Positions 7,171 through 46,491 of a stretch of DNA of 48,404 nt are shown here, in pieces. The stretch is from a virus (lineage: Duplodnaviria; Heunggongvirae; Uroviricota; Caudoviricetes): the IMG/VR virus record IMGVR_UViG_3300045988_155859. One strand, written 5' to 3'. A program made the position numbers and the translations under genes. A model generated the notes under the pieces. That model was not told the origin of the DNA. It did no database searches and saw only the letters and a program-made list of their open reading frames with translations. Numbering within the stretch: the first letter of the stretch is position 1; each line of letters starts with the position of its first letter.

Positions 7171-7287
7171 ATCTATAAATATATAATTATAGATTTATAT
7201 AAAAAGTGCTTTACAGGTGGGAAAAAATTTCCTAAGGTTATACCCGAAACCGAGCGATACCCGCCCTGGTTAAACCGGAGAAATCTG
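7171..7287 (+). promoter_or_regulatory. Repeated promoter/5'-leader cassette, copy A
   Basis: ATATAATTATAGATTTATATAAAAAG-GCTTTACAGGTGGGAAAAAATTTCCTAAGGTTATACCCGAAACCGAGCGATACCCGCCCTGGTTAAACCGGAG then ATG; near-identical to 14708-14818 and 45995-46110. Contains TTTACA (candidate -35) and GGAG RBS. Confidence 0.5.
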
Positions 7288-8355
7288 ATGAATAAACAAG
7301 TAATTATTTCTGACTGGATCAACAACCCTAACAGCCTGTTAAGCACTGATACTGGCTACCTATTACGCCATGTTAATGGTCGTATGGTCAAAAGCGATGA
7401 GCACGAAACCTTTTTCTTTGTTGAAGACGATGGGCGTATCTATGAGGATGGTTACTCTTATGAAGCCCAAACTGGTTGTATCCCTGCGGAGCTGGTGGAT
7501 GTAACAGAAGATCTGCGCAAAGCATGGCTTGAACAGCAGCAGCGCGGAGATGATTACGTAAACACCTATCAGGAACGCCAGAACGCGCGTCTTGCCCGAT
7601 ATATTGCTCGTGCAGAAAAAGCCAGAAAAGAAGGTGCGGTAGCGCATAAGCGAGCGCATGACCTGTTGGATGTGATCCCGTTAGGCCAGCCGATTTTAGT
7701 TGACCATTATAGCGCGAAAGGCCATCGCCGCCGTTTGTCTAAAGCTGATGCGTTATTCAGAAAAGCGTTTGTTGAATGCGAAAGTAAAGCATCACACTAC
7801 GAGAGCAAAGCCGCAGGTGTTGGTCGTAATGGAATTTCGTCTGATGATCCTGATGCGCTATTTAAGTTGCTTCGTAAGCTGCAAGGCTGCATGAAGTCAC
7901 ACGTCAAAATGAAGGCCGCAAATAAGGCCATTCGCAAATACAAAAAAGACCAAATACAGCAGCTTTCTGCATTAATCGATCTCAGGTTTACAGAAAGCGA
8001 AGCCAAAGAGTTACTGGCCGGAGATTTCTGTGGGCGCATCGGATTCCCTTCATACGCACTGAGCAACAATAACGCCGAAATCAAACGACTACAGAGCCGT
8101 ATTAAGGAGCTTGAATCGGTCAAGTCTGTAACAGGAGCACAGCGCGAAGAATACGACGGCTTTTCTATGGAGATAGATCCAGAGGATAACCGCATCCTGT
8201 TTTATTTCCCTGGCAAACCAGAGGCAAACATTCGTTCGCTGCTTAAATCACGCGCCTTTAAGTGGAGTCCAACCCGTAATGCATGGGTTCGCAAGATTAC
8301 TCCAAACGCCCTGGCTGATGCCCGATATCTGAAAGAATCGCTATTGAAAGCCTGA
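7288..8355 (+). CDS. DUF3560-like protein
   Basis: 355 aa with GQPILVDHYSAKGHRRR motif, which I associate with DUF3560; first gene downstream of cassette copy A. Confidence 0.45.
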   Translation: MNKQVIISDWINNPNSLLSTDTGYLLRHVNGRMVKSDEHETFFFVEDDGRIYEDGYSYEAQTGCIPAELVDVTEDLRKAWLEQQQRGDDYVNTYQERQNARLARYIARAEKARKEGAVAHKRAHDLLDVIPLGQPILVDHYSAKGHRRRLSKADALFRKAFVECESKASHYESKAAGVGRNGISSDDPDALFKLLRKLQGCMKSHVKMKAANKAIRKYKKDQIQQLSALIDLRFTESEAKELLAGDFCGRIGFPSYALSNNNAEIKRLQSRIKELESVKSVTGAQREEYDGFSMEIDPEDNRILFYFPGKPEANIRSLLKSRAFKWSPTRNAWVRKITPNALADARYLKESLLKA

Positions 8356-13736: not shown

Positions 13737-13812
13737 GGCCCCTTAGCTTAGTGGTTAGAGCAGGCGACTCATAATCGCACGGTCATCGGTTCAAATCCGG
13801 TAGGGGCCACCA
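13737..13812 (+). tRNA. tRNA with anticodon CAU (Met, or Ile if lysidine-modified)
   Basis: 76 nt folding by hand into a cloverleaf: 7-bp acceptor stem (GGCCCCT/AGGGGCC), D-arm GCTT...GAGC, anticodon loop CTCATAA, T-loop TTCAAAT, encoded CCA end. Confidence 0.8.
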
Positions 13813-14119: not shown

Positions 14120-14707
14120 ATGGAGGCAATTGCATTGTTTAATCTGATTTATGCAGATCCCCCCTGGGAATACAAAGATAAGTGTAAGGATGGGAATCGT
14201 GGAGCTGGTTTTAAGTATCCAACGATGAAAGCTGAGGATATTGCTCGTATTCCTGTCTGGCAGCTTGCTAATCCTGAATCGTGTTTGTTGGCCATGTGGT
14301 GGGTTCCGACTCAGCCAGAAGAAGCGTTGCTGGTGGTGAAAGCATGGGGATTCAGGCTTATGACCATGAAGGGCTTCACATGGAACAAATGTGGTAGCCG
14401 ACAACCAGATAAGCTGGTGATGGGGATGGGGCATATGACTCGTGCAAACAGTGAAGATTGCTTGTTTGCGGTAAAAGGCAAATTGCCGACCCGCCTTGAT
14501 GCGGGGATCATTCAGTCGTTTACATCGCCTCGTCTGGAGCATTCTCGGAAGCCTGATGTGGTTCGTGACAAGCTGGTAAGGCTGTTAGGTGATGTTCCTC
14601 GTATTGAGCTGTTTGCTCGCGGTGATTTACCTGATGGTTGGCATGGCTGGGGCAACCAGTGCAATGGAGGTATCCAGTTGCATGATGCTCTCTGGCAAGT
14701 GGCATAG
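14120..14707 (+). CDS. MT-A70-family DNA N6-adenine methyltransferase
   Basis: IYADPPWEY (DPPW catalytic motif) near the N-terminus; 195 aa. Confidence 0.8.
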   Translation: MEAIALFNLIYADPPWEYKDKCKDGNRGAGFKYPTMKAEDIARIPVWQLANPESCLLAMWWVPTQPEEALLVVKAWGFRLMTMKGFTWNKCGSRQPDKLVMGMGHMTRANSEDCLFAVKGKLPTRLDAGIIQSFTSPRLEHSRKPDVVRDKLVRLLGDVPRIELFARGDLPDGWHGWGNQCNGGIQLHDALWQVA

Positions 14708-14818
14708 AATTATATAATTATAGATTTATATAAAAAGCGCTTTACAGGTGGGAAAAAATTTCCTAAGGTTATACCCGAAACCGAGCGATACCCGCCCTGG
14801 TTAAACCGGAGAAATCTG
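14708..14818 (+). promoter_or_regulatory. Repeated promoter/5'-leader cassette, copy B
   Basis: Near-identical to copies A and C; begins directly after the methyltransferase stop and ends at the 14819 ATG. Confidence 0.5.
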
Positions 14819-15088
14819 ATGAAAGTACAAGACCGTGAAGTAGTAAAAAACCTCCTGCAATACCTGACCTCAAAAAACCTGACGGGCAGCGTTGAGTTCC
14901 GTGAAGCGTTAAAACATTTCAACGTCACTACGGTTTATCGTTGGGAAAACAAACATTCTGAAAGACCGTATGTGGTGGATGTTTTTGCGCCTGATATTGA
15001 GTGCGGTTTTGAGCGTCATTCGTTCAAGGAGAAACATTCTGCTGATTTTTTTTGTGAGGTTGTATGTGCGGCAGGAGATGATGAGTGA
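14819..15088 (+). CDS. Hypothetical protein
   Basis: 89-aa ORF directly downstream of cassette copy B. Confidence 0.4.
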   Translation: MKVQDREVVKNLLQYLTSKNLTGSVEFREALKHFNVTTVYRWENKHSERPYVVDVFAPDIECGFERHSFKEKHSADFFCEVVCAAGDDE

Positions 15089-41864: not shown

Positions 41865-42391
41865 AATTTAGTGATGAATGTTGAATCATCAGGAATATCA
41901 TGCAATACCAATGCATGAGCACCTATTGTGACATTGTTTCCTATACGCACTTTGCCACCAAGAATGGTGGCATTACAACCAATGGTCACATTATGCCCTA
42001 TAACAATATCCATATCATTAAATTCCCCGCGAAGTCCAATAGTTACTCCGGGCTTAATTGAACAATTTTCACCGATTGTTACTTTGTGACCGATAACAAC
42101 ACTGTTGAGATAAGAAATATCAAAGCCTTTCCCTATATTTACAGTTAAAGGGACTGTTACATTATATTTATCAAGAATGAAACGTTCTATTTTTCCCGCA
42201 ATCTTCCGACAGTATCCGCCTTTATCAAAAAGGTATTTGGCTATGCGCCACCAAAATAAATAACGAACCCTTCTATGTTTTATTGCGCGAACAATTGCCT
42301 TTTGCCAGGAGAAAGGACGCTCGCTACCGATTACTTCATAGTGAATACAGTCTTTAAGTTCATTAATATTCATATCTTTATTATTCAGCAT
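41828..42391 (-). CDS. Hexapeptide-repeat acyltransferase (left-handed beta-helix family), candidate lysogenic-conversion gene
   Basis: Repeated [LIV]-G-x-x-x-x hexads ([23 protein letters not shown]...[34 protein letters not shown]); convergent with Tfa and overlapping its 3' end by 37 bp. Confidence 0.7.
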
Positions 42392-42806
42392 AAGATAATC
42401 ATGTGACCAATTATTGTAATAATTTTAATGGTATGTTTCTACTGGCTATCCAGCGTGTCTGATATCCAGTAACAAATCGTCAACACGGGTGCAATCAAAT
42501 AGTGAGTGTTAAGACTGACCACTTATTACCAGGTATGAGTGGCCAGCATTAAATCAGAACAGCCCTTTAACTGAACTGGCCGCGCTGTTAAGGGATGATG
42601 TCACCTTATCTTTGAAGCCGGACAGCATATTGCTGAACGATGAGTTTACCGCAGGTTTCTGGCTGGGAATCATTGACTGGAGTTAGGCCAGTAGTATGAT
42701 GCTCGCAAAACGAGATCCAATTTAGATCCTTTTACTGGTGGATTATCGTTCGATCAGTGAGAGACTTCGTGCATGACCGAAAGTGTTGTGGTAGAGTTCT
42801 CTTAAA

Positions 42807-42821
42807 ACCACGTAACGTGGT
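42807..42821. promoter_or_regulatory. Operator-like palindrome ACCACGTAACGTGGT upstream of repA
   Basis: Same ACCAC-N5-GTGGT dyad as the sites in the cI-cro region. Confidence 0.45.
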
Positions 42822-42861
42822 TATGATTGTGGGTGTCTGGTTGGAAAGTGACCAGATATGG

Positions 42862-42975
42862 AAACAAAAAGCCCGCAGATAAATCTGCGGGCTTCTTGCG
42901 ACATCCACGGAAAACCAACAACAACAATCCATGGGCGCCTCGACAACTCCCATTATACGTTGGTTTTCCGTGGAC
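42862..42975 (-). ncRNA. Candidate CopA-like antisense RNA over the repA leader
   Basis: Minus-strand terminator hairpin (11-bp stem AGCCCGCAGAT/ATCTGCGGGCT, 42870-42893) followed on the minus strand by a T-run; a 13-bp long-range inverted repeat (42904-42916 with 42962-42974) in the leader. Boundaries approximate; no promoter identified. Confidence 0.35.
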
Positions 42976-42989
42976 GCAAGAGCGAACAT

Positions 42990-43838
42990 ATGGATAGACC
43001 AATGCCGTCTCTACGTTCAGCTTACGTTTGTAATTTGTCGCCGGAGTTCCAGCCTCCAAAGCACCATACGCACAAGCTGCCGCTGGTGTTATCTGATGCT
43101 TTACAGCGCATTAATGGGCGTGATCTTACGTGTGAGGTTGCGTTCTACGTTAATCAACCGTCAGAGCGGAAGCGCCGGATAAACGAGCATCGTCGTCGGG
43201 CGATTAATGCTGTGATCGCTGCGATTTTGCACCATGTAAACATCATTTCTAAGCGGGTTCTGGCTAGTGCTGAGGCGTTGGCTGATTTTTGCGGCCTGTC
43301 TACCGTATCCGAAGCTGGGAACAAGTCTATAACGCGCTGTACAAGGGCGTTGTCGCAACTGAAAGCGTTAGGTTTTATTGATTATGAACGTCGCTGGGAT
43401 CGGGTGAATAAACAGTATTGGCCAGCGAAAATAGAGATTCGTGATCAACTGCTGGAAACCGTTGGTATTACTGAACAAGCATGGAGACGTGCGGTTAGCC
43501 AGAAACTTAATTACTTCAATGCGAAGAATAGCGAACGGCTTAAAAAAGCGATAACGGAGGCTGATTATAAGCGTATTGTTATTCAGGAGCAGATGGAGAA
43601 TGTATGGCGTCAGAGGAAGACGGCCAGAGAGATAAAGGCAAAACAGAAAGCAGCGGAGAGAGCTGCGCGTCTTGTTCGGGAAAAGGGAGAGGCCGAACTT
43701 CGTCATCAAATCACCAGAGAGGTTAGTCAGGAATTTGCTGATGGCATGTATCCTGGTGCTGACCTTGCATATTTACGATCCCTCGTTGAGCAGCGTTATA
43801 ACAGGTTAAGAAAGACCTGGAAATCACTCCAACATTAA
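42990..43838 (+). CDS. repA: Replication initiator RepA (IncFII RepA1-like)
   Basis: ...RRAINAVIAAILHHVNI...CGLSTVSEAGNKSITRCTRALSQLKALGFIDYE... parallels R100 RepA1 as I recall it. Start set at the Met where the similarity begins; the frame is open upstream to 42858. Confidence 0.75.
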   Translation: MDRPMPSLRSAYVCNLSPEFQPPKHHTHKLPLVLSDALQRINGRDLTCEVAFYVNQPSERKRRINEHRRRAINAVIAAILHHVNIISKRVLASAEALADFCGLSTVSEAGNKSITRCTRALSQLKALGFIDYERRWDRVNKQYWPAKIEIRDQLLETVGITEQAWRRAVSQKLNYFNAKNSERLKKAITEADYKRIVIQEQMENVWRQRKTAREIKAKQKAAERAARLVREKGEAELRHQITREVSQEFADGMYPGADLAYLRSLVEQRYNRLRKTWKSLQH

Positions 43839-43979
43839 CCCACCTGAATGATGAATCCGGTTTTACCGGAGGATTATCTACGTCGCAATAAAATATCTGT
43901 TCAAAAAACAATCTAAATTAATTTTCTCTAAACCTGAACACAGCAAAAATATCGCCTTTACAGGCATCGGCTAATAAAG

Positions 43980-43988
43980 TTATCCACA
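43980..43988 (+). promoter_or_regulatory. DnaA box TTATCCACA in the candidate origin region
   Basis: Perfect consensus 9-mer about 140 bp downstream of repA, in AT-rich DNA. Confidence 0.55.
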
Positions 43989-44481
43989 GTTCTGATATAT
44001 ATATGCAAATGGTTTTTTATAATAGATGCACTAAACAAATAAATGCAAAATCACTTTCTTTTATTAAGACTTTCTTTATTTAACTTACGCAGGCTTTGCC
44101 TGTGAATATGTTCGCCCTTGCAGCGAGCTAAAGCTCGCGCCGGTTCGAGTCGCTACGCTCAAATATACCTCCTCCGGCACTTGCCGGAGGCATGGAGCAG
44201 CCTGATCATCCTTTTCGAAACGGCACGTTTCGAACTATACAAAATCAATTTATATAAGGCCGAAATAAGGCCTACGGCCGGGCTTTGCAGGAGGAAGGGG
44301 CGAGCCTTATCAATAAACGTCGATAAATACGCACACAGTAGCCATCAGAACGCGATAAAATGTAAGAAACATCATTTCCTATTAGACATAGAAAACTTGT
44401 CTTATACGCAATGTAGTAAATTTCTATTGCCACATAGGAAAAGATTTCCTACCATCGTAGATATAATAAATGGAGATGGTT

Positions 44482-45994: not shown

Positions 45995-46110
45995 ATAGAA
46001 TTATATAATTATAGATTTATATAAAAAGTGCTTTACAGGTGGGAAAAAATTTCCTAAGGTTATACCCGAAACCGAGCGATACCCGCCCTGGTTAAACCGG
46101 AGATAACCCG
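45995..46110 (+). promoter_or_regulatory. Repeated promoter/5'-leader cassette, copy C
   Basis: Near-identical to copies A and B over about 100 bp; differs only in the last 10 nt before the ATG. Confidence 0.5.
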
Positions 46111-46491
46111 ATGAGCATGATTAAAATCCGCAAAAACGCTTTCCTTAAAATTCAAACTATCCTGGCTGGTTCTGTTGGCGTGATTTGCCGTTCTTCTTCA
46201 AGCCGCATCGATGACGGCTACGATGATGAGTATCGTTTGTCCTCGTGCGATGAGGCTTTAACCTGGCTGAAGGAGAATCAGGAACGTGCCCAGGTATATC
46301 TGGAAACAGAGAACGGCAATCAGATGCTCCGTATTAGCGGTCGTTATGGATTTGAAACCACATTCATGGCCTATTTTAATCAGGCTTACTTTGACAAGGA
46401 GTTGGCCTGGTACACTGATCGCATGAGCAAAAGCGAGCCAGCCCCGATTACACCGCCGAACGATAAACCATTTTTATTCCTCGTTAAGTAA
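46111..46491 (+). CDS. Hypothetical protein
   Basis: 126-aa ORF directly downstream of cassette copy C. Confidence 0.45.
   Translation: MSMIKIRKNAFLKIQTILAGSVGVICRSSSSRIDDGYDDEYRLSSCDEALTWLKENQERAQVYLETENGNQMLRISGRYGFETTFMAYFNQAYFDKELAWYTDRMSKSEPAPITPPNDKPFLFLVK

Follow-up and report, generated by a model that had tools for sequence, protein, structure and literature searches.

A likely IncFII/L-M-superfamily replicon with predicted antisense-RNA copy control in an Escherichia coli phage-plasmid

Organization of the locus and the RepA initiator

The viral DNA analysed here (IMG/VR record IMGVR_UViG_3300045988_155859, Caudoviricetes; 48,404 bases, the whole of which we call the window) encodes a plasmid-type replication initiator, RepA, on the plus strand, from 42990 or 43002 to 43838. 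The gene is preceded by a long, structured leader and followed by an apparent replication origin. We consider it likely that the region from ~42645 to ~44300 is an autonomous, plasmid-type replicon of the theta type, which belongs to the IncFII/L-M superfamily and in which an antisense RNA of ~85 nucleotides (nt) controls copy number. The initial annotation of this DNA had placed a replicon at 42392-44120, and the core of that interval stands. Its left ~250 bases do not, because homology to relatives with another upstream gene begins at 42645: these relatives carry a DNA invertase gene (Hin-type) where the window has a hexapeptide transferase gene. Judged by this homology, 42392-42644 lies outside the replicon. 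On the right, the origin probably continues beyond 44120, to ~44300. Between the hexapeptide transferase gene and the replicon we also find a 96-bp fragment (42549-42644) that shares 96-99% identity with genes annotated as "tail protein" in P88-like and other phages; it marks a variable cargo junction, possibly a remnant of an invertible tail-fibre segment.

The family of the initiator is defined by profile matches. The 42990-43838 product matches the Pfam family IncFII_repA (PF02387) at 150.5 bits (cut-off 22.9) over residues 9-275 of 282, and the NCBIfam model RepA_IncFII_LM (NF040977) at 232.2 bits (cut-off 70) over profile positions 1-266 of 266. Against the IncFII equivalog model TIGR03474 it scores 79.2 bits, far below the cut-off of 446.9, and tblastn aligns it to IncFII RepA at ~31-41% identity across only 29-45% of the protein. 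The protein search thus confirms a RepA-family product and narrows the earlier description of it as resembling IncFII RepA1, which is correct for the superfamily and incorrect for IncFII RepA1 itself. By these models, RepA is an IncFII-superfamily initiator of the RepA_IncFII_LM branch, not of IncFII proper. No RepA relative with a solved structure was found, and a profile search of genome contigs with the RepA alignment returned an unrelated Streptomyces match as its sole result. The start codon common to all lineages is ATG 43002 (MPSLRS...), which gives 278 amino acids (aa) and at which 277-aa homologues begin; ATG 42990 (282 aa) is in frame and lineage-specific. Translation may begin at either.

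Transcription of repA is predicted to start near 42707, from a plus-strand promoter at 42673-42700 (TTGACT, 16 nt, TATGAT; 10 of 12 positions in the promoter scan). For this and the following comparisons we collected 13 distinct versions of the leader from plasmids, viral contigs and metagenomes, representing ~5 independent lineages. All five leader lineages have the -10 hexamer in register, and four of them also keep the -35 hexamer. The resulting mRNA leader (42707-43001, plus strand, ~285-295 nt) folds with z = -7.0 and is better conserved than the coding region that follows it, as seen against relatives with 74% DNA identity across the replicon region. It contains a small hairpin at 42806-42822 (AACCACGT..ACGTGGTT), which the other lineages retain, with changes within the stem and next to it. 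Just downstream of the predicted start, two GATC (Dam) sites lie 11 nt apart (42714-42734); they are kept in four of the five leader lineages and may link repA transcription to the methylation state.

Leader hairpins and a predicted antisense RNA

The most prominent structure of the sense leader is a long hairpin at 42904-42974 on the plus strand, with a perfect 16-bp stem (42904-42919 paired with 42959-42974) and a 39-nt interior; folds extend its base by pairing ~42893-42898 with 42976-42981. The initial annotation had recognized this element as a 13-bp long-range inverted repeat (42904-42916 with 42962-42974), which is real and longer than described. Across the 13 variants 96.5% of the stem positions are paired, 3 of the 16 pairs have changed on both sides, and neither a shuffled sequence nor a slid register reaches the same score. 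The role proposed for the repeat, occlusion of the repA start, does not agree with its position: a gap of 8-16 nt lies between the end of the stem and ATG 42990, one of 20-28 nt between it and ATG 43002, and the stem itself leaves the start codon uncovered. We also considered an inverted repeat between 42976-43002 and 44095-44121 as a RepA operator or a link to the origin and rejected it as a chance match, as its downstream arm is not complementary in Salmonella.

Within the same leader, the minus strand is predicted to encode a countertranscript of ~85-89 nt (42860-42948), consisting of a 5' tail, a first stem-loop, a second stem-loop that acts as terminator, and a U-tail. Its predicted promoter (42952-42979, minus strand) combines a -35 hexamer TTGCGT (42979-42974) with a -10 hexamer TATAAT (42957-42952) over a 16-nt spacer and places the start at ~42944-42948. 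Both hexamers are invariant and their spacing is fixed in 13 of 13 variants, whereas the bases of the spacer vary; they also form the 3' arm of the sense hairpin. A minus-strand TTGAAA-16-TATAAT is found at the corresponding place in L018, a metagenomic relative whose RepA is 63% identical. Because the antisense promoter sits inside the 3' arm of the long repeat, that repeat appears to be mainly a structure of the sense leader and not a part of the antisense RNA. The terminator hairpin occupies 42865-42898 on the minus strand, with 16-nt arms (42865-42880/42883-42898) followed by UUUUUGUUU; it is thus real and larger than the 42870-42893 given for it before. A simple terminator scan had missed it, since the stem runs into the T-run. 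On the plus strand its tail is the interrupted UUCUUGCG, and a clean U-tail exists on the minus strand only; therefore the repA mRNA can read through. One lineage (L032) has a compensatory A-U to G-C change in this hairpin, and below the Rfam thresholds the region matches the terminator portions of CsrC and of the Thr leader.

All 13 variants fold individually into one shape of ~-40 kcal/mol, and the RNAalifold consensus has the same two-stem-loop fold, in which the first stem-loop is built from helices of 7 and 4 bp and a loop of ~16 nt. Read as antisense RNA, these helices are paired in 99.1% of cells, and three pairs have changed on both sides. A plus-strand reading of these helices lowers the paired share to 80.1% overall and to only 68.5% in the first stem-loop. 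Five pair positions are G-U in the antisense helices and valid on the minus strand only. Such a strand asymmetry is what selection on a minus-strand RNA would produce.

A second signature comes from sequence variation among close relatives. Fifteen alleles of the E. coli lineage, all sharing >97.9% identity with the window over 1.7 kb, were compared; the region averages about one variable site per 16-18 nt. There is no variable site in 42849-42913 or in 42929-43018, and between them the segment 42914-42928 carries substitutions and indels (-1, +2, -3) in most alleles; among its versions are AACAACAAT and AACTAA. This segment forms the loop of the first antisense stem-loop; in the target hairpin, the complementary bases are those left unpaired on the 5' side of the interior. 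In copA alleles of IncF plasmids the recognition loop sets incompatibility. By analogy, 42914-42928 is likely a recognition (kissing) loop and hence a candidate incompatibility determinant; a duller alternative is relaxed constraint together with slippage in an (AAC)n run. Promoter, terminator, strand-specific covarying fold and loop variability, the features expected of a countertranscript replicon, can thus all be predicted from sequence, and they fit the layout for countertranscript control that the initial annotation had suggested while noting that a CopB-like open reading frame (ORF) is missing.

How such an RNA would act can be outlined as follows. The promoter at 42673-42700 would drive a repA mRNA with a leader of ~290 nt, and a constitutive antisense RNA of ~85 nt, initiated from TTGCGT-16-TATAAT and ending at the 42865-42898 terminator, would set the copy number. 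Two parts of this RNA, the 5' tail and the 16-nt loop in the first stem-loop, would pair with the unpaired parts of the long leader hairpin, and this pairing would lower RepA synthesis. The duplex might free the 3' arm of the hairpin, which could then refold over the two candidate start codons, and/or RNase III might cut the long duplex. Computation shows the family of RepA, the layout of the origin, both covarying RNA structures, the strand bias and the location on plasmids in every genome; that the RNA is made, that it represses and by what route it does so we infer, repression as such by analogy with every studied member of the superfamily (PMC8125031, PMC5883639). For the refolding step, we computed folds in which the target is held single-stranded: the freed 3' arm then pairs with AUGGA...CCAAUG, the region of both ATGs, and in the window the conserved ATG becomes less accessible, its probability of being unpaired dropping from 0.77 to 0.23, with a smaller effect in three of the five lineages computed.

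Several points weigh against this interpretation. The existence of the antisense RNA is predicted, as are its start and its effect; the -35 hexamer TTGCGT matches 3 of 6 positions and the site is unlisted in the promoter scan. With only ~5 independent leader lineages the covariation counts are small, and recent spread or recombination, instead of selection, could account for part of the leader conservation. The 5' end of the antisense RNA lies 46-58 nt upstream of the candidate starts, too far for a likely direct steric block. The loss of start-codon accessibility is absent in one lineage (L022), and the alternative hairpin does not exceed shuffled sequence in stability (z -0.4 to -1.6). The refolding switch is therefore a weak guess from modelled folds, and RNase III cleavage of the long duplex seems equally plausible.

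Three other readings of the leader have to be weighed. An unlikely one, though the strongest of the three, is that the countertranscript is longer, ~115-125 nt, that it starts at ~42975-42985 and that it comprises the 16-bp long hairpin as well as the terminator. This corresponds to the transcript over 42862-42975 proposed in the initial annotation. The minus strand of 42858-42985 indeed folds at -68 kcal/mol (z = -9.0), weak Rfam matches of the hairpin-plus-terminator kind extend over 42862-42975, and the compensatory changes of the long stem are Watson-Crick and compatible with either strand. However, such an RNA needs a promoter at 42985-43025, around the 5' end of repA, a stretch that is unconserved between E. 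coli and Salmonella and lacks good hexamers, and the perfect, invariant TATAAT with its fixed spacing to TTGCGT would fall inside it. Moreover, the covarying first stem-loop, functional as a helix on the minus strand only, belongs to the short RNA, and the long stem contains a single wobble, a U-G in the Salmonella Concord type, which can pair only on the plus strand. We thus favour the start further in, at ~42944-42948, since the invariant promoter lies inside the 3' arm.

Considerably less probable is the view that there is no antisense RNA at all, that 42865-42898 is a bidirectional terminator or insulator, and that the long hairpin acts in cis within the repA leader to set translation or mRNA stability by itself. 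The weak -35 hexamer and the purely predicted status of the transcript would agree with this view, as would the sense hairpin, which is well supported by itself. Yet a terminator would then lie inside the repA leader, downstream of a conserved repA promoter, with a proper U-tail on the minus strand only and with G-U pairs in its helices that are valid on that strand only. Relatives with CopA or PK-repBA have an antisense gene at the same place and share the AAACAAA(A)AGCCC terminator start and the minus-strand TATAAT promoter. A lone hypervariable loop in an otherwise invariant leader, finally, is the pattern of antisense specificity loops.

The RefSeq/PGAP reading, in which RepA has 326 aa from ATG 42858 and the leader is in part coding, has next to no probability: the frame is open from 42858 in the window, PGAP calls this form in E. 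coli plasmids (WP_224158527.1, 42858-43838) and a protein cluster of 525 members rests on it, but indels of -1 and +2 nt within 42914-42928 of very close relatives break the frame, homologues have only 274-284 aa, the Pfam match starts at residue 53 of the long form, the frame stops 24 nt before the ATG in L022 and is shifted in L032, and the extra N-terminus of 44-48 residues would traverse conserved RNA hairpins. The N-terminal extension of WP_224158527.1 is very likely an annotation artefact.

The short antisense RNA opposite the leader thus being our preferred reading, we asked how it compares with described control elements. The Rfam models CopA (RF00042), PK-repBA (RF01089) and PK-repZ (RF01087) find no match in 42300-44300, even at E = 10. 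This absence is informative because relatives do match: pYV scores 88.5 bits with CopA, and L005 (a pKPC_UVA01-type relative) and L018 score 56.7 and 49.3 bits with PK-repBA (threshold 45). No CopB-like ORF lies between the promoter and repA. A tap-like leader peptide is equally missing, since no small ORF persists from lineage to lineage: stop positions differ, and the indels have lengths other than multiples of three. Individual candidates were rejected: the invariant ATG 42931 at the hairpin apex (83 codons) has no Shine-Dalgarno sequence and its frame stops at very different places elsewhere, and in relatives the leader ORFs that end with TAG 42995-42997 or start from TTG 42960 are interrupted or have their end at another place. 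By inspection, no conserved complement of the loop GGGCGCCUCGAC lies near the ribosome-binding site, so that an activator pseudoknot was discarded, and an AGAGCG/CGCCU pairing considered as a pseudoknot is not kept in L022. The leader of L018, read by eye, has a UUGGCG loop, a 15-codon ORF whose TGA overlaps a GTG start, and a CCGCCA pseudoknot partner; none of these three occurs in the leader type of the window. The predicted control region matches no described family, and the leader design appears to be undescribed. What appears undescribed is the combination of a two-stem-loop countertranscript, a long target hairpin and a hypervariable loop without CopB, leader peptide or pseudoknot.

This control region seems to have been exchanged as a module. 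L022 combines the leader type of the window and the first ~18 RepA codons of that type with a RepA of only 62% identity, the remainder of which resembles the ~60%-identity group. This points to an early-repA recombination junction (L022 840-1100 versus window 42858-43060); because L022 pairs this leader type with such a RepA, control region and initiator appear to be reshuffled within the family. A sister group (RepA ~60% identical) carries an ORF of 158-162 aa instead of the antisense-type leader; this ORF overlaps the repA start at its end (L019 2016-2504, L021 2016-2504, L023 112-588) and has a weak IncFII_repA match, as if a part of RepA had been duplicated upstream.

The origin downstream of repA

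We aligned the DNA downstream of repA with Salmonella relatives, the pKPC_UVA01-type plasmid, pYV, an IncFII plasmid and three metagenomic relatives (L018, L020, L021). A common order emerges: a GGAGG hairpin, a DnaA box, ATGCA motifs, an AT-rich stretch and a structured block. The hairpin follows the repA stop at 43856-43872 on the plus strand (TCCGG-TTTTA-CCGGA, then GG), where CIS lies in R1. It is present in eight of eight aligned replicons, including pYV and IncFII, with an invariant GGAGG and compensatory CCAG/CTGG variants, and its position suggests that it is a CIS-like element.

The DnaA box, TTATCCACA, lies at 43980-43988 on the plus strand, a perfect box in AT-rich DNA as the initial annotation had stated. 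It is the sole TTATNCACA in the window; 2.2 are expected by chance, so the count alone is not significant. The box is credible because its position aligns with the DnaA boxes of five related replicons (pYV, IncFII, L018, L020 and L021), including the R1-type IncFII. The box of the Salmonella relatives reads TTATTCACA, and the IncFII row carries GGGGAATTTTGCTTATCCACATTTA, the sequence context of DnaA-box1 in oriR of R1 (PMC5883639). That box has been mutated experimentally, and R1 RepA binds directly downstream of it (PMC5883639). Hence the three ATGCA motifs that follow in the window (44003, 44026 and 44043, within 44000-44052, plus strand) likely constitute the RepA-binding region. This region has no variable site in the E. 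coli lineage and is kept in six of six L/M-type replicons; IncFII and pYV have TGCAA instead. Next to it, a stretch at 44053-44089 (plus strand) is AT-rich at the same place in every aligned replicon and may be the unwinding element.

The right-hand block of the origin (44090-44147, plus strand) contains a palindrome CAGGCTTTGCCTG, the motif CGCCCTTGCAGCG, a hairpin GCGAGC-TAAA-GCTCGC (44123-44138) and GCCGGTTCG, and has no variable site in the E. coli lineage. With blastn we located it 270-400 bp after repA in 222 plasmids, which represent many replicon types, and its hairpin covaries (GCGACG/CGTCGC, GCGAAC/GTTCGC, GCGGCG/CGCCGC). The block may be a priming or loading site. Further conserved hairpins extend through 44148-44300 (for example 44171-44190 and 44211-44233), ending in GCAGGAGGAAGGGG. 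Compared with Salmonella they differ in their loops only, and they are partly common to pKPC_UVA01-type, L020 and L021 replicons; Rfam gives no match in this part. A G4-type primase site was considered for the hairpins of 44090-44340 and rejected, since there is neither a similarity to G4 or to phages beyond those with the same element nor an Rfam match. RepA would most likely act on this immediately downstream origin: by analogy with R1, it would bind beside the DnaA box, open the AT-rich DNA together with host DnaA and start unidirectional replication.

Phage-plasmid context and comparison with known systems

The window is collinear end to end with the complete circular E. coli plasmid NZ_CP032259.1, save for an IS21 insertion in the plasmid, and by this comparison it represents a complete circle. 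The plasmid encodes capsid, tail, tail-fibre, lysis and terminase proteins, a ParA-family protein, a toxin-antitoxin pair and RepA, and its PGAP annotation lists no integrase, in agreement with the earlier claim. Since the window is the whole circle, the possibility of an integrase and attachment site in sequence outside it does not arise. The ParF/ParG and HigBA-like modules noted initially are present, as a ParA-like ATPase with an 82-aa partner and a Gp49/HigB-like toxin with a helix-turn-helix antitoxin. A near-identical replicon region is found in at least 54 PLSDB plasmids of 46-52 kb, all typed as non-mobilizable and of unassigned replicon type (MOB-suite gives no type), and the same replicon is present in three phage isolates, the Yersinia phages vB_YpM_39, 41 and 44. 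Among 5426 complete E. coli genomes, 71 (~1.3%) carry the replicon, ATCC 25922/Seattle 1946 among them, in 82 places on plasmids and none on chromosomes. We thus find a phage genome on a circular plasmid record, no integrated copy in the 71 E. coli genomes, and virions in the form of the vB_YpM isolates. An extrachromosomal prophage, as first proposed, is strongly supported by the plasmid location of all 82 places, the whole circle, the lack of an annotated integrase, the partition and toxin-antitoxin modules and the phage isolates; the element is best described as a ~48-kb, myovirus-like phage-plasmid. Our literature searches yielded no published description of this replicon.

Elsewhere in the window, Rfam matches above threshold comprise, on the minus strand, a C4 antisense RNA (1299-1386, 84 bits) and isrK (1411-1484, 70 bits), and on the plus strand ryfA (1856-2152, 142 bits) and a tRNA gene (13737-13809, 65.8 bits). 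The C4 match lies next to the partition genes and suggests a P1/P7-type antisense immunity system. In addition, a 115-bp cassette occurs three times at ~95-100% identity (7175-7291, 14703-14823, 45996-46114), each copy with TTTACA-17-TAAGGT-like hexamers, a conserved 5' leader and GGAGA..ATG at the gene start. These cassettes look like a repeated, co-regulated promoter-leader unit at the head of three operons.

The closest mechanistic comparison is with IncFII plasmids such as R1 and R100, which are organized as copB, copA/CopT, tap, repA, CIS and oriR, and with pYV of Yersinia, a close copy of the IncFII basic replicon in which copB and tap are annotated. RepA falls into the same Pfam family in all of these. 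As in R1/R100, the origin follows repA, with a hairpin after the stop codon and a homologous DnaA box, then TGCA-type motifs and AT-rich DNA; likewise, R1/R100 have a two-stem-loop antisense RNA of ~85-90 nt in the leader that ends in a stem-loop terminator, as is predicted for the window (PMC5883639). Unlike these plasmids, the window has a RepA that fails TIGR03474 and lacks CopB, a tap-like peptide at the repA start and a CopA match in Rfam, and its variable recognition loop lies in the first stem-loop, not in the terminator stem-loop.

By protein family, the window is closest to IncL/M plasmids (pMU604, pCTX-M3) and the I-complex, as RepA_IncFII_LM is its best family. Replication of these plasmids is controlled by RNAI, a leader peptide (repB or repY) and an activator pseudoknot, a mechanism summarized for IncL/M in PMC8125031. 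Two relatives of the window, L005 (RepA 37% identical) and L018, reach the PK-repBA threshold and share the origin layout of the window, including the right-hand block, with an antisense RNA that starts from a minus-strand TATAAT in the leader. In contrast, the window has no PK-repBA or PK-repZ match, a terminator hairpin without UUGGCG loop, no leader-ORF stop overlapping the repA start and no conserved pseudoknot complementarity that we could find, and its predicted antisense RNA has two stem-loops, not one.

As a temperate tailed phage kept as a low-copy plasmid with partition and toxin-antitoxin genes, the element resembles P1/P7, D6, SSU5/pHCM2 and N15, and the C4 RNA is of the type known from P1. 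P1, SSU5 and N15 replicate by iteron-type or protelomerase-linked systems, whereas the element described here uses a replicon of the IncFII/L-M superfamily with predicted antisense control.

A replicon decides copy number, stability and compatibility with other elements. This one belongs to a phage-plasmid carried by ~1.3% of complete E. coli genomes, including that of the quality-control strain ATCC 25922, and isolates have been recovered on Yersinia pestis. Replicon-typing schemes would miss it, as MOB-suite does, and the 15-nt loop is a likely compatibility marker. In practical terms, the RepA start given in RefSeq can be corrected and limits are set for a clonable minimal replicon. Antisense control of IncFII-type replicons is a long-established general principle, so that the gain is moderate in this respect; for RNA biology, one initiator family would come with three leader designs, namely CopA with tap, the pseudoknot and the one seen in the window. 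More tentatively, and with considerable doubt on our side, one may imagine that the phage-plasmid lineage replaced an IncL/M-type control (single stem-loop RNAI, leader peptide and pseudoknot) by an undescribed, leader-peptide-free design, in which a two-stem-loop RNA attacks the open interior of a long hairpin and the loop at 42914-42928 is under diversifying selection, allowing relatives to escape each other's replication control. If this were true, the loop would be a replicon-level "immunity type", deciding if the genome of a superinfecting phage becomes established as a plasmid.

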